Sequence record: PQ785851.1
Reading direction: 5' to 3' (one strand)
From: a phage
Length of the DNA stretch: 40,865 bases
Shown here: one piece after another, positions 1 to 40,865 of the stretch
How positions within the stretch are numbered: position 1 is the stretch's first letter
How the letters are laid out: every line of letters begins with the position of its first letter
Position numbers and translations under genes: made by a program
Notes under the pieces: model-generated
The model's database searches: none
What the model saw: only the letters and a program-made list of their open reading frames with translations
What the model was told of the DNA's origin: nothing

Positions 1-743
1 ACGGAGGAACAGGAGCTAGTACAGCACCTGAAGCGCGTAACAACCTCGGGCTTGGAACTTCTGCTGTCATTGATCATGGCTATGATCCTGGGCAAGTTCA
101 ACTAGTTTTTGGATCAAGGATAATGCGAACCGACAAGCCCAAAACAACCTGGACGTATGGATATGAACCTATTAGTCCAACCAACTTATACTACCTAGAT
201 TATGTTGTATTTATGGATATGCCTGGACCAACTGCTAGAGAGTGGGCTCAGCTTGCCGTTTCTTATGCGGAAAGGAGATGCTATATAGCTAACTCAACTT
301 ATAATAACGGCCTTGGGTTCATGGAACTTTACCACTCACAAAACGTAACCGTAGACTCTAACGGTTTCCTTAAAAAGGCTTCTCCTATAATTAAAGTCTT
401 CAGTGATGGTGGTTTTGAAACAAACGAGCAATCAAAGGGAGCTACAGTGGAGAGAGTTTCCACTGGTGTTTATAGGGTATCAGGTGTGCTTGGTCTAAAT
501 TCGGATGCCTCCTGGGGTGGTGTTAATGGTGGCTTTGAGATACCTTTAGATGCAAACAAGCAGCCAAGAATATGGCTAGATTATGAGGTTGAGTCTAATG
601 GCTCAATAGTAGTAAAAACTTACCATCGAACTCACGATTCATCCCCGTCCTTTGCAAGAAATAAAGTTGAAGGTTTTAGTAACGGCGATCCTATAGATAT
701 TCCTTCTGACTCTTTCGTTTCAATTCGAGTAAATATGCCATAA
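1..743 (+). CDS. tail fibre-like protein, C-terminal part; same reading frame as ORF 40471..40865 across the circular junction
   Basis: Frame 3 is open from position 3 into the track ORF 123..743; bases 1-49 duplicate 40817-40865; joined N-terminal region carries a GTGASTAPEARNNLGLG stretch that I recall from phage tail-fibre N-termini. Confidence 0.5.
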   Translation, partial: GGTGASTAPEARNNLGLGTSAVIDHGYDPGQVQLVFGSRIMRTDKPKTTWTYGYEPISPTNLYYLDYVVFMDMPGPTAREWAQLAVSYAERRCYIANSTYNNGLGFMELYHSQNVTVDSNGFLKKASPIIKVFSDGGFETNEQSKGATVERVSTGVYRVSGVLGLNSDASWGGVNGGFEIPLDANKQPRIWLDYEVESNGSIVVKTYHRTHDSSPSFARNKVEGFSNGDPIDIPSDSFVSIRVNMP

Positions 744-745
744 AA

Positions 746-772
746 AAGCCCCCGAAAGGGGCTTTGTCTTTT
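746..772. terminator. bidirectional rho-independent terminator between convergent genes
   Basis: GC hairpin AGCCCC-cgaaa-GGGGCT flanked by an A-run on one side and a T-run on the other. Confidence 0.6.
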
Positions 773-773
773 A

Positions 774-1205
774 TCAGAAGGGGATATCATCCTCGAAGTT
801 CTTCTGCTGTTGAGGTTGACGCTGCTGCTGTTGTTGCTGTTGCTGCTGTGGTTTTTGCTGTTGCTGTTGTTGCTGGACACCTTCACCACGCTGACTAAAC
901 TCAAGTCGCGGGTTGTTCATGTTGATTGTTACATAAGTTTTACCATCTTTATCACGAACGTCTACAGCCAATGTTTCACAACTTACGCTAACAACCTTCC
1001 CCTCCTGGAAAGCCTCATCGTACCAAGCAAGCATTGATTCTTTGGCGAAGAACACGGCGCGATAGTTGCTATAATGCGCCTGTCCATCTTTATCCTTGTA
1101 TCGCTCGTTTAAATCAACTGCGTACATCTTCCAGGTGCCATTGGCATTCTGACCTTCTTTAGTGAACGGAGCGCGACGGATAACACCAGTGATTACGTGA
1201 CTCAT
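774..1205 (-). CDS. ssb: single-stranded DNA-binding protein
   Basis: 143 aa; C-terminal acidic tail ...FEDDIPF typical of SSB; poly-Q linker; purine-rich RBS upstream. Confidence 0.85.
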   Translation of the reverse strand: MSHVITGVIRRAPFTKEGQNANGTWKMYAVDLNERYKDKDGQAHYSNYRAVFFAKESMLAWYDEAFQEGKVVSVSCETLAVDVRDKDGKTYVTINMNNPRLEFSQRGEGVQQQQQQQKPQQQQQQQQQRQPQQQKNFEDDIPF

Positions 1206-1245
1206 TTTCTTTCTCTCTTAATGTTGGGGCCGCAGCCCCGTTAAA

Positions 1246-1896
1246 TTAGAATGTATCGATTTCTTGAGATTGTACTTCAACTTTTTCTTCTTGAACATTC
1301 TTTTGTGCAACTTGCTTAGGTTTTGCAGGATTAAAACCGTTAGTTGCATTAGCCTGAATCTCAGCTTTCCTCTCGATGATGTGAGGCTCGAGCACTAGCC
1401 AGCCTGCTGAATCAAGTGACTGTTTCGCTTCTTTGTAAACATCACGAAGGTCATCAAGCGTATTGCACTTAGCCAAATCCTTCTTAAATGAGTTAATTCC
1501 TTTAACTGCCAGCTGACCATCATCATCTGCTTGGCTTAATCCTAATGCCGCTGTAATTGCGTAACGGCGAGCGTATGTGAGTGATGAGCCATAACCTTGA
1601 GCATCTTGCTTGCTGATTGGGACGATTGTCAGGAAGCTAACCCATTCTCCAGACTCGGCATGGTATACGGTAGTCTCAACCTTAATACGAGAGCTAACAT
1701 CATCATCAACCATTGACTGAAACATTACCAATCCGCTATCCGCCAGGCCCGGCTCAACCGCCGCTAAAACATCATCTAAAGTGGCGTACTTGTTCTTTAG
1801 GTGCGAGTTCTGCTTTGATTTTTCAGCCTTGGCAAACTTTGATTTAGCCTCAAATAACGCCTTCAATACTTGCTTGTTTTGCTCTGAAGTCTTCAT
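1246..1896 (-). CDS. Erf-family ssDNA annealing protein
   Basis: 216 aa; ...SLTYARRYAITAALGL... resembles the conserved Erf core; sits between SSB and a nuclease. Confidence 0.65.
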   Translation of the reverse strand: MKTSEQNKQVLKALFEAKSKFAKAEKSKQNSHLKNKYATLDDVLAAVEPGLADSGLVMFQSMVDDDVSSRIKVETTVYHAESGEWVSFLTIVPISKQDAQGYGSSLTYARRYAITAALGLSQADDDGQLAVKGINSFKKDLAKCNTLDDLRDVYKEAKQSLDSAGWLVLEPHIIERKAEIQANATNGFNPAKPKQVAQKNVQEEKVEVQSQEIDTF

Positions 1897-1926
1897 TACC
1901 TATCTCTCTTTCGTTTTGGTGAGGTA

Positions 1927-1972
1927 ATGATACCCCACCAGTTAACTTTTTCTTTAGCAATTAGTGCTATTT
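1927..1972 (-). promoter_or_regulatory. promoter-like module, conserved 22-bp element family (copy a), reads toward erf
   Basis: Minus strand reads AAATAGCACTAATTGCTAAAGAA, 17 bp, TATCAT, 6 nt, ACCAAAACGAAAGAGAG, ATG. Confidence 0.45.
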
Positions 1973-2938
1973 CAGCAATTCTTGATACTTTTTACTTACC
2001 CACTCAGGAATCATTAAATCTTGCTCTGTAATCCCATTACTGTAACCAGGCCACACATCAAGTTCCTTGCACTGTTTGTATGTAGCCAGTGCTTCAAGAT
2101 ACTGAATGCGCCCAATGCGAAGCTGCTCATCTGTAAGCGTGTAGCACATAGGTAAGTAAGGCTCAGTTTTCTCCTGCGCCAGGAGTCGAACCACAACCTT
2201 GCGCTTCTCGCTGAATGCCTTCACAAACAAATCGCGTTGAAGTGCCATCTTGCAAAGGTATCCATGGTCATAAGCCGACTTACCAAACCATCGAGGGCTT
2301 GCGTCTGCCGTCGTTTTATAGTCAGTAATGTAGACAACGCCATCAACAACATCAACGTGATCAAGCCTAACCTTTACGCCACAACCTAAAATCTCACCAA
2401 AGATGGATAACTCTTTCTGTGCTGTTGGTGAATTAATGACCGAATCGTAAGCTGGAATATTGGTCAGAACCTCGCGCATTGAGATTACCTTGTCGTAATC
2501 TTTCGCAGTAACCAACTCCTTGCCACTAATCAATGCCTCAGCGCTCTCCTGCTGCTCAATTAGCCATTTAACAGGCCAATCCTCGCCAGACTTATACATC
2601 ATCTCCACGAGCTCGTTATAGCCCTCTCCTGACGTACCAGAAACACCAACTTTCTTAAGTGCTGCTGATAAAGCTGTTTGGCTTGTGATCAATCCTTCAA
2701 CTTCGTCAAAGTCAGTGGCTCGCATGTAGGTTGAATCGAAAACCTCGCGCTCTAGCATCATCGTATGACTCAGAGTGCCAAACTTAAGTGCTGCGCTGGA
2801 GTTATTGCGCTGCTTGAATTTCCATTTAGCTGGTGAGGTTGCGAGAATCTCAGCCAGTGATGAGCCAGAGATATGGTCTTGCTCTTCGTGATAAGCCTCG
2901 TTGGTTAGTTCGTCGTTCGTGTAAACTTTAAATGTCAT
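1967..2938 (-). CDS. putative recombination exonuclease (PD-(D/E)xK, RecB/Cas4-like)
   Basis: 323 aa; ...VVYITDYKTTADA... resembles the DYKT nuclease motif; directly upstream of Erf and SSB. Confidence 0.5.
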   Translation of the reverse strand: MTFKVYTNDELTNEAYHEEQDHISGSSLAEILATSPAKWKFKQRNNSSAALKFGTLSHTMMLEREVFDSTYMRATDFDEVEGLITSQTALSAALKKVGVSGTSGEGYNELVEMMYKSGEDWPVKWLIEQQESAEALISGKELVTAKDYDKVISMREVLTNIPAYDSVINSPTAQKELSIFGEILGCGVKVRLDHVDVVDGVVYITDYKTTADASPRWFGKSAYDHGYLCKMALQRDLFVKAFSEKRKVVVRLLAQEKTEPYLPMCYTLTDEQLRIGRIQYLEALATYKQCKELDVWPGYSNGITEQDLMIPEWVSKKYQELLK

Positions 2939-2941
2939 GGC

Positions 2942-3136
2942 TCAAACCTTAATTTTAACAATCTTGATTGCCTTCAAATCTTCTTCAGTGAAGTATCCTG
3001 TCAGCAGTCCTTTGGCCTCTTCCTTTGTCTCGAACCTGTCGGCCTCACTCTTATCTGTGGTGTATCCAGCCTGGCCGCCAAAGTAGCAGTCGCCGAACAG
3101 TGCATTGTTTTTCTCTTTAATTATGAAGTATGGCAT
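2942..3136 (-). CDS. hypothetical protein
   Basis: 64-aa ORF co-oriented in the early leftward operon. Confidence 0.35.
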   Translation of the reverse strand: MPYFIIKEKNNALFGDCYFGGQAGYTTDKSEADRFETKEEAKGLLTGYFTEEDLKAIKIVKIKV

Positions 3137-28730: not shown

Positions 28731-28878
28731 GTCTGCGTACAGTTTGTAGATAAGGATTATTGCCGAATCCACCCATATATGCCTTTTTATTCCTACAATG
28801 TAGTCATATTCCTACAAGCGTAGGAATATATCATAGAAAATCACCAAATATCACATATCAGCTATCTACATTATCTAC

Positions 28879-28942
28879 ATATATATAATAATAATAATAA
28901 TAATAAAGTAAAAGGTTGATATATATAGATATTATTATGTAA
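28879..28942. repeat. AT-rich element with (TAA)7 tract, copy B
   Basis: GTAAAAGGTTGATATATATAGATATT at 28908-28933 identical to copy A; TAA tract two units longer. Confidence 0.6.
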
Positions 28943-39461: not shown

Positions 39462-40385
39462 ATGCATCACGATAAGAATGAAGTTTTGTCAAAAATGAAG
39501 GGCATGTGGTCAAAGTTTTACGAATCTCACATGGGCTGGACAAAAGAAAACCTTAGCAAGAAACACGGGCCATGCCCATACTGCTTTGGCACTGACAGAT
39601 TCAGATTTACCGACGAAATAGGCAGTGAAAAAGGAAATGGCTCGGCAGTTTGTTCGAAATGCGGAAGTGACTCCGGTATAGGATGGGTCATGAAGTGCAC
39701 TGGATCGTCCTTCGCCGATTCAGTAAATTTGCTTGGTGACTGGCTGAACTTAACACCAATTGAGGTTATAGTTAAAGCAAACAAGCAAGCATCCAGAACT
39801 CATCGTTATAAGATGGGCGCTCAAGTAGACCATGAAAAAGTTTTGGAGGTCATGGGGAGAACTCAGCGAGTTGACTCAAGTCCACTCACGACATATGAGG
39901 GTATATACTCTGAATCTGGTTTTGATGTTGGTATAGCTAAAGATGGTTCAATGATTCATGCCGTGCCTTGCTCCATGGTTTATGAGGATGGGCTTGGTGA
40001 TGAGTTCTGTAACGTAATGTTTATTGATGAGGATTCAAATGTTAAGTTCCTTGCTGGTGATTATACTCGTGATTCTGTTGCTGTCATTGGTTCTAGGCAG
40101 GACAATAGTTATACTTATGTTGTTGACAATTATATTGATGGCGTACGTGTTCACCTTGCTACTGGGGGTCGCGAGGTGTTTGTTGCTTTCTCCTGTTACA
40201 ATATGGAGATGGTTATACACCGCGACAAGTCAAGGAAGTTCAGAATTGCTTGCCATGATTATGATATCGATATCCTTGCTGTTGCTGACGATCGCAATGT
40301 TGATGTGGTGATTCCCAATGACGGTAAGTCATTTAAAACAGGCATACGCAAGAAAGTGTACAAAGCCAACGACTTAATAAACTAA
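39462..40385 (+). CDS. DNA primase (zinc ribbon plus TOPRIM-like)
   Basis: 307 aa; Cys pairs CPYC...CSKC; acidic TOPRIM-like segment ...ACHDYDIDILAVADDRN... Confidence 0.6.
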   Translation: MHHDKNEVLSKMKGMWSKFYESHMGWTKENLSKKHGPCPYCFGTDRFRFTDEIGSEKGNGSAVCSKCGSDSGIGWVMKCTGSSFADSVNLLGDWLNLTPIEVIVKANKQASRTHRYKMGAQVDHEKVLEVMGRTQRVDSSPLTTYEGIYSESGFDVGIAKDGSMIHAVPCSMVYEDGLGDEFCNVMFIDEDSNVKFLAGDYTRDSVAVIGSRQDNSYTYVVDNYIDGVRVHLATGGREVFVAFSCYNMEMVIHRDKSRKFRIACHDYDIDILAVADDRNVDVVIPNDGKSFKTGIRKKVYKANDLIN

Positions 40386-40407
40386 CCTCCTTCGGGAGGT
40401 TTTTTAT
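40384..40407 (+). terminator. rho-independent terminator after the primase gene
   Basis: Hairpin CCTCC-ttcg-GGAGG followed by TTTTTTATT. Confidence 0.6.
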
Positions 40408-40430
40408 TGCATTAAAGATGGTAGAATTAG

Positions 40431-40454
40431 TTTTAGCAAATTGTGCTATTTTAC
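40431..40454. promoter_or_regulatory. inverted copy (i) of the conserved 22-bp element, upstream of the tail-fibre gene
   Basis: Plus strand reads TTTAGCAAATTGTGCTATTTT; a TG-n-TATTTT extended -10 lies 19 nt before the ATG at 40471. Confidence 0.35.
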
Positions 40455-40470
40455 AAATGGAGACCTTACA

Positions 40471-40865
40471 ATGGCAATTTATGACGCTGGAACAGCCAGC
40501 CTGGCAGCTAACGGCACTGTAACTGGTGTTGGGACTACCTGGATGGCTCCGCTTACGCTGATTCGTGTTGGCGCCACTATTGTTTTCAAGACTGAACCAG
40601 TGAAGATTTACACTATCTCTGAAATCATCAGCGACACGCAGATTAATGTTTACAACCCTAATTCTGAAACCGTTGCTGCTGGAACTGGTTACGCCATTCT
40701 TCTTCATGATGGTATTACAGTTCAGGGTTTGGCACAGGACGTAGCCGAGACGCTTAGATTTTATCAGTCAAATAATTATGTGAGCGGTGGTGATGATGGG
40801 AATGTAAAATTAGAGAACGGAGGAACAGGAGCTAGTACAGCACCTGAAGCGCGTAACAACCTCGG
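40471..40865 (+). CDS. tail fibre-like protein, N-terminal part (continues into 1..743 across the circular junction)
   Basis: ATG at 40471 with RBS GGAG; ORF runs off the window end in the same frame as the open frame at the window start. Confidence 0.5.
   Translation, partial: MAIYDAGTASLAANGTVTGVGTTWMAPLTLIRVGATIVFKTEPVKIYTISEIISDTQINVYNPNSETVAAGTGYAILLHDGITVQGLAQDVAETLRFYQSNNYVSGGDDGNVKLENGGTGASTAPEARNNL

Follow-up and report, generated by a model that had tools for sequence, protein, structure and literature searches.

The glutamine tract encoded within the ssb gene of this phage is, with a probability that we put at about 80%, the disordered and compositionally constrained linker of a divergent SSB (single-stranded DNA-binding protein) from a phage, the last product of an exonuclease-Erf-SSB module, and not a contingency locus. 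The SSB annotation itself is already known, from phiA2-1 and Rtp, and no new kind of system is revealed. The locus is mildly unusual in its extreme glutamine bias (20 of 30 linker residues here, with a median of 59% in the Rtp-like clade) and in the series of length alleles found among relatives. No description of a polyglutamine linker in a phage SSB was found in the literature searched. The sequence analysed, referred to as the window, is the whole 40,865 bp stretch in GenBank accession number PQ785851.1, and comes from a T1/Rtp-like siphovirus that is a coliphage (Drexlerviridae, Braunvirinae).

The SSB and its layout

The gene and the parts of its product were located as follows.

774–1205, minus strand: ssb gene, 143 aa, ATG start and TGA stop, in the family of T1 gp27 and Rtp gp49
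888–1205, minus strand: OB-fold domain, residues 1–106 (AlphaFold2, Foldseek and family profile)
798–887, minus strand: intrinsically disordered linker, residues 107–136, GEGV...KN (pLDDT and codon coordinates)
804–875, minus strand: Gln tract QQQQQQQKPQQQQQQQQQRQPQQQ, residues 111–134 (codon table and Tandem Repeats Finder)
777–797, minus strand: acidic C-terminal tip FEDDIPF, SSB-Ct-like (direct reading of the sequence)

The 143 aa protein translated from the open reading frame at 774–1205 ends in ...GVQQQQQQQKPQQQQQQQQQRQPQQQKNFEDDIPF, and its tail can be laid out as ...NNPRLEFSQRGEGV-QQQQQQQKPQQQQQQQQQRQPQQQ-KN-FEDDIPF. The tip directly precedes the TGA codon, leaving the terminal phenylalanine free. 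Between the OB core and the tip lies a low-complexity linker that is about two-thirds glutamine (~67%), includes three basic residues and is nearly uncharged. Textbook accounts of SSBs include both the core-linker-tip design and low-complexity linkers that vary in length.

The window protein matched PHROG 44 ('single strand DNA binding protein') with an E-value of 5.3e-29 (residues 1–143 against profile positions 88–228), and had 100% identity with the phiA2-1 product annotated 'ssDNA binding protein' (WRH07491.1). It had no match to the Pfam SSB family (PF00436) even at E-values up to 1, and that family was matched weakly by just two of 42 diverse members of the phage family (best 2.7e-4). 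A single-sequence search of PDB sequences with the window protein produced chance matches only. When a profile of the 42 diverse family members was used, the SSBs of Klebsiella (3.7e-13) and E. coli (2.8e-9) were recovered and aligned with the profile from end to end, and, restricted to the OB region, there was a match (3e-5) to the tail-less yeast mitochondrial protein Rim1. A connection to solved SSBs is absent with a single sequence and seen only with the family profile. Comparison with the E. coli SSB using hhalign returned a probability of 98.6% and placed FEDDIPF on the E. coli tip, MDFDDDIPF.

In an AlphaFold2 model, which represents a monomer and was made from a shallow alignment, residues 1–106 (pLDDT 76–93) folded as a beta-barrel that also has a helix (residues 56–65), and residues 107–139 (pLDDT below 50) were without secondary structure. 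The top 50 Foldseek matches in PDB were nearly all SSB or PriB chains of bacterial or organellar origin. When 1.84 billion representatives were searched exhaustively with the OB part, just 62 relatives emerged, all of them small, with a core of ~100 residues followed by a tail rich in Gln, Pro, Ala, Gly and Asn, and most ended in (D/E)DDIPF. A scan of IMG/VR by peptide patterns detected 600 poly-Gln-like stretches, none of which was confirmed as a relative. From the sequence comparisons and the model, we conclude that the 774–1205 reading frame encodes an SSB-superfamily protein that has diverged strongly and has the canonical arrangement of core, linker and tip; for this protein we infer ssDNA binding and an oligomeric state. 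The first-pass annotation had read this gene as an SSB with an OB fold, a linker and an acidic DDIPF tip, and the PHROG 44, hhalign, profile, Foldseek and AlphaFold2 results bear this out.

The E. coli and other enterobacterial SSBs have the same OB core, disordered linker and DDIPF tip (FEDDIPF in the phage, DFDDDIPF in the host). The phage OB domain differs in having diverged past any Pfam SSB score, and the linker, at ~30 residues with no Gly-rich blocks, contrasts with the 56-residue Gly/Gln/Pro-rich linker of E. coli. Much closer are the putative SSBs T1 gp27 and Rtp gp49 (rtp49), which belong to the same family, the Rtp protein being 87.7% identical over residues 3–108. The T1-like genes occupy the same place, past the exonuclease and Erf genes and ahead of the tail-fibre gene, and their products share the Gln-rich linker and xxDIPF tip and differ only in the sequence and length of the linker, which includes a run of 12 Gln in Rtp. 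No experimental work on the T1 gp27 or Rtp gp49 SSBs was found in the literature searched.

A more distant phage homologue, the SSB of HK620, is likewise encoded beside an annealing protein (PMC5928155). It has the tip NDYPPF in place of DDIPF, its partner is the RecA-like Sak4 and not Erf, and no poly-Gln linker has been described for it. The six C-terminal residues of the HK620 SSB are needed to recruit Sak4 and stimulate its annealing (PMC5928155), and Red-beta also contacts the E. coli SSB (PMC6393309). The window SSB family was also considered as a known trigger of phage defence and rejected, as the triggers of Retron-Eco8, which are SSBs of the T7 gp2.5 type (bioRxiv 10.1101/2022.08.27.505566; PMC13402713), and the DRT10 trigger Bas52_0087, which has two OB folds (bioRxiv 10.64898/2026.04.29.721553), belong elsewhere.

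Composition and length variation of the glutamine tract

Glutamine accounts for 20 of the 24 residues at positions 111–134, encoded by 11 CAG and nine CAA codons that are interleaved (CTG and TTG on the plus strand) and interrupted by AAA-CCA, CGT and CCT. The longest run of identical codons is CAG x3 (822–830). Tandem Repeats Finder reported a period of 3 at 821–848 only (28 nt, 84% matches, score 35), and looser periods of 6–21 across 804–875 with 74–88% matches. Hairpin formation by the tract did not exceed that of shuffled sequence on either strand (z-scores 0.6 and 1.0). In the first-pass annotation the tract had been placed at about 790–870, 5–14 nt away from its actual limits, and described as near-perfect CTG/TTG repeats forming a CAG/CAA microsatellite. 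The description suits a YTG pattern and a poly-Gln peptide but does not extend to a pure trinucleotide repeat, and the microsatellite label has to be withdrawn, given the interleaved codons, the longest pure run of three and the lack of hairpin potential; the tract is not a long uninterrupted array of one 1–6 nt unit.

Among the 39 longest reading frames of the window, Gln makes up 3.9% of 10,587 residues and Gln runs of at least three are confined to ssb, placing the tract far beyond chance. Across 17 loci, CAA accounted for 47% of the Gln codons in the linkers as against 32% in the OB domains and 34% genome-wide. The purest run within the family was six identical codons, and the 12-Gln run of Rtp includes CAG x6. 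As CAG and CAA are mixed, the repeat is purer in amino acids than in nucleotides, and this is a sequence signature of selection for glutamine rather than of fresh DNA expansion.

Protein homologues were compared using the best 120 of 526 matches, which had 80–100% identity. In these, the OB part was 102–103 residues long with most positions invariant, and the tip F-x-x-x-IPF was kept in 120 of 120. The linkers of the same 120 were 26–38 residues long (mode 32–34) with a Gln content of 46–70% and a longest Gln run of 3–11. They differed even where the OB parts were identical, an amount of change that looks inflated in a set clustered at 90% identity. Looking inside 90% clusters removes part of this bias. 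Complete proteins from the members inspected in seven such clusters were 128–145 residues long, and Q8, Q9 and Q10 alleles were found in one 90% cluster with the tail otherwise identical. Over all of the homologues inspected (more than 120), the linker spanned about 19–38 residues and an interspersed pattern of Pro, Arg and Lys recurred.

Pairs of loci were also compared at the DNA level. The pairs were chosen for unequal linker length in the proteins, and it is the flanks free of indels that are informative.

L011/L012, 903 bp: two differences, both in the tract, namely (CAA)5 versus (CAA)4 and one CAG/CAA change
L015/L017, 3429 bp, 99.4% identical: one indel in all, a single CAA, in the tract
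L013/L014, 1985 bp, 93% identical: one indel in all, (CAGCAA)x2 within a (CAGCAA)n run of the tract

GenBank relatives, which were picked on similarity alone, had ssb genes of 420–438 nt as against a constant 651 nt for Erf wherever the whole Erf gene was read. Every tract length change observed was in frame. Judged from these alignments, the tract is a genuine hotspot for whole-codon indels among relatives, and the indels fall at locally pure CAA, CAG or CAGCAA runs, as slippage or unequal recombination predicts.

No length change was seen between the closest genomes. The tract is of equal length in phiA2-1, within a block of ~4.45 kb (window positions 1–3136 and 39550–40865) that is 99.7% identical to the window, with 15 substitutions and no gaps. 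A single synonymous change, between CAG and CAA, separates the two tracts, and it is not significant, as ~0.24 differences are expected in 72 nt (15 in 4452 nt). A set of 43 near-identical vB_EcoS isolates, 42 of them with genomes of 44,219 bp, had identical match statistics over the ssb region, and the tail DNA was identical in both of the two isolates that were read. The first-pass annotation had named an absence of length polymorphism in populations or relatives as grounds for refutation; polymorphism was found among relatives, and slippage-prone length is supported as whole-codon variation among relatives but not as rapid variation within a population, to which phiA2-1 and the 43 isolates lend no support.

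Interpretation of the tract

Going by established SSB biology, the OB core would coat ssDNA produced by the exonuclease and at replication forks, and the linker would serve as a flexible, uncharged-polar tether that offers the tip to SSB-Ct-docking proteins. The FEDDIPF tip copies the host SSB-Ct and so would dock on the chi subunit, DnaG, PriA, RecO and ExoI, and the phage Erf protein probably also docks on it. Neighbouring SSB molecules may also be joined by weak amide-amide contacts from linker to linker. The DNA of the linker evolves fast, both by point changes and by whole codons or CAGCAA units being gained or lost where short runs are locally pure, which would occur through slippage during replication or through unequal recombination. 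Selection would hold the linker at 46–70% Gln, with a few Pro, Arg and Lys, and at ~19–38 residues, and the exact sequence would drift; the bounded Gln content and length fit selection on composition.

What the linker might do beyond this can be gauged from other SSBs. Bacterial SSB linkers range from 25 to 125 residues, and that of E. coli is required for non-nearest-neighbour cooperativity and for phase separation or condensation (bioRxiv 10.1101/2022.01.17.476650). The first-pass annotation had proposed that changes in repeat length could tune linker length and partner-protein interactions; partner binding by the E. coli SSB is via the tip and not the linker (PMC7145534). The E. coli effects have been ascribed mainly to Gly backbone amides and not to Gln or Asn, and the Asn/Gln-rich tail of the Plasmodium SSB supports neither condensation nor cooperativity (bioRxiv 10.1101/2022.01.17.476650). 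The disordered tail of this SSB, from the Plasmodium falciparum apicoplast, is likewise dominated by side-chain amides and not by Gly, but it is highly acidic (21 anionic residues), whereas the phage linker is nearly uncharged. A cooperative or condensing role of the poly-Gln linker is possible, and it is made uncertain by the data pointing to Gly as the driver of E. coli SSB condensation and by the absence of either effect for the Plasmodium tail. It is safest to read the linker as a tether that is flexible, nearly uncharged and bounded in length.

A hypermutable microsatellite, acting as a contingency locus in which length variants arise at high frequency in the population and linker lengths are selected, would account for whole-codon indels that, between genomes almost identical elsewhere, coincide with the tract, for the coexistence of Q8, Q9 and Q10 in one cluster and for the purer runs, of up to six identical codons, in some relatives. 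CAG/CAA poly-Gln microsatellites and bacterial contingency loci have in common with the tract a period of three nucleotides and indels of whole units among close relatives. The phage repeats differ from these in being interrupted, with mixed codons, no hairpin propensity, no frameshifting and no variation seen among near-clonal isolates (43 by match statistics, two read). We consider such a locus improbable, as the window tract has only short pure runs, its length is the same in phiA2-1, the vB_EcoS isolates agree with one another in match statistics (43) and in tail DNA (the two read), changes that are in frame only provide no on/off switching, and the distribution of linker lengths is narrow, with its mode at 32–34 residues in the best 120 of 526 homologues. 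A tract without function, the product of neutral slippage or a runaway CAG/CAA expansion where any disorder is tolerated, is also unlikely. Such a tract would explain frequent indels and an exact linker sequence that is unconserved even between identical OB domains, and the E. coli SSB linker is dispensable for binding at least four partners (PMC7145534). It is at odds with a Gln content, length and recurring Pro, Arg and Lys that stay within the same bounds in every homologue inspected, and with the mixed codons, as a peptide repeat purer than the DNA repeat is the opposite of what a recent expansion would give. Distant members of the family also have tails rich in Gln, Pro, Gly and Ala, some with GWGQPQQP and EPPMDFDDDIPF, which points to a composition that is maintained.

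It is most implausible that the repeat works as nucleic acid or via the opposite strand, as a poly-Leu membrane peptide, a promoter or structured RNA or DNA. An antisense frame does exist:

810–1037, plus strand: antisense poly-Leu ORF, 75 aa, TTG start inside the repeat; not a gene

There is also one weak promoter-like match (9/12) at 874–901 on the plus strand. The start codon of the antisense frame is, however, itself part of the repeat, and in Rtp and vB_EcoS-12210I the codon-aligned frame runs into stops just past the poly-Leu stretch. Promoter-like matches are rarer than in shuffled sequence (3 versus a mean of 5.0), folding of the tract is no better than that of shuffles, leading us to reject a structured DNA or RNA role, and it is the Gln that is conserved and the nucleotide sequence only poorly so. 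The antisense frame, which had been called spurious at the outset and was rejected as a gene here, is on this evidence a by-product of the CTG/TTG tract. Two more repeat-derived ORFs are present in other frames.

A more specific role can be imagined, in which the linker is an adaptive module, adjusted rapidly, and the length of the Gln run sets SSB self-association or condensation on ssDNA. Phage-specific foci of recombination or replication would then compete with the host SSB for DDIPF-binding partners, and slippage alleles would retune Rtp-like phages to different hosts or to host defences that sense ssDNA-SSB complexes. We regard this as doubtful. The locus is a clean natural case of SSB linker evolution, with a frozen OB core and tip and a churning spacer. 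The natural length alleles (~19–38 residues, Gln runs of 3–11) provide a ready series for tests of linker length and Gln content, which could probe SSB cooperativity, condensation and the recruitment of partners from the host or the phage, Erf among them. A further use could be in improving Erf-based recombineering, where matching of the SSB tip matters.

Altered tails in relatives and the surrounding module

In several relatives, a gene for an endonuclease of PHROG 2340 (4.9e-40) was found directly 3' of ssb. The endonuclease gene is 90% identical between two loci (L021:2501-3404 and L022:1201-2095). In the relatives that have it, the ssb stop codon is lost and ~15 residues are added past IPF (A-S/P-L/F-GLQY..H.I..L). 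One extended SSB reads ...DIPF-ASFGLQYGKHRIYAL, and further examples are proteins P0009, P0028 and P0225. A similar extension is present in a distant representative, P0125, a family member that is only 45% identical. The free carboxylate of the terminal Phe of the SSB-Ct is part of the docking motif, and an extension after IPF would leave this Phe buried or masked. These features suggest a mobile element of the homing type, directed at the conserved end of ssb that encodes DDIPF.

The tails of distant members P0121, P0122, P0151, P0164 and others include GWGQPQQP and EPPMDFDDDIPF, both of which we take to be present also in the tail of the E. coli SSB, in agreement with the hhalign alignment. 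The OB cores of the distant members with GWGQPQQP tails are strongly diverged from that of the host. The host-like motifs hint at tail exchange with the host ssb gene, or at strong convergence on it.

The genes and signals around ssb are listed below.

1246–1896, minus strand: Erf-family single-strand annealing protein (Pfam ERF 4.8e-28; PHROG 155 3.2e-48), directly upstream of ssb in the same operon
1967–2938, minus strand: PD-(D/E)XK exonuclease, exonuclease VIII-like (Pfam DUF3799, PDDEXK-like, 5.9e-22; PHROG 412 'exonuclease VIII' 9e-101)
745–765, both strands: GC hairpin with A-run and T-run flanks, between the tail-fibre gene (plus) and ssb (minus), from a plus-strand scan

The module runs exonuclease, Erf, ssb, all on the minus strand, with the exonuclease gene first and ssb last. 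The gene order in Rtp is as in the window, and the Rtp record annotates similarity to T1 gp29, gp28 and gp27. The same exonuclease-Erf-ssb order was found in every metagenomic locus that included the upstream genes. On direct reading of the minus strand, the stem of the 745–765 hairpin is followed by TTTTTT, and it is a predicted terminator common to the convergent tail-fibre gene (plus) and ssb (minus). Within the 40 nt that separate the stop of erf from the start of ssb, a second hairpin is present at 1226–1239, rich in GC (GGGGCTGCGGCCCC on the coding strand) and not followed by a U-run. Its role may be in RNA stability or processing, or it may act as a weak attenuator and so set the ratio of Erf to SSB. 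The Erf C-terminus (1246–1290, minus strand) is an acidic tail, ...EEKVEVQSQEIDTF, and the Rtp Erf, which is 75% identical overall, keeps the final SQ(E/Q)IDTF. This tail is reminiscent in sequence of acidic docking tails that end in Phe, and its candidate partners are the exonuclease and the SSB core.

The block shared with phiA2-1 holds the primase gene, the end of the tail-fibre gene, ssb, erf and the exonuclease gene. The other segments of the window that align with phiA2-1 are 78–91% identical, mostly 78–87%. The contrast with the 99.7% identity of the block indicates a mosaic block that has been exchanged recently by recombination.

Bases 1–49 of the window are repeated exactly at 40817–40865. 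A terminal repeat of 49 bases implies that the assembly contig closes into a circle, its unit length being 40,816 bp, and the window is probably a complete phage genome. Elsewhere, an AT-rich intergenic region at 28780–28930 includes a perfect (ATA)7 microsatellite at 28885–28906, an array purer than the Gln tract. In addition, ATCTACAT motifs recur there and a palindromic element, TTCCTACAA..GTAGGAA, is present twice, and the region is a candidate for an origin or for a divergent early promoter/operator.
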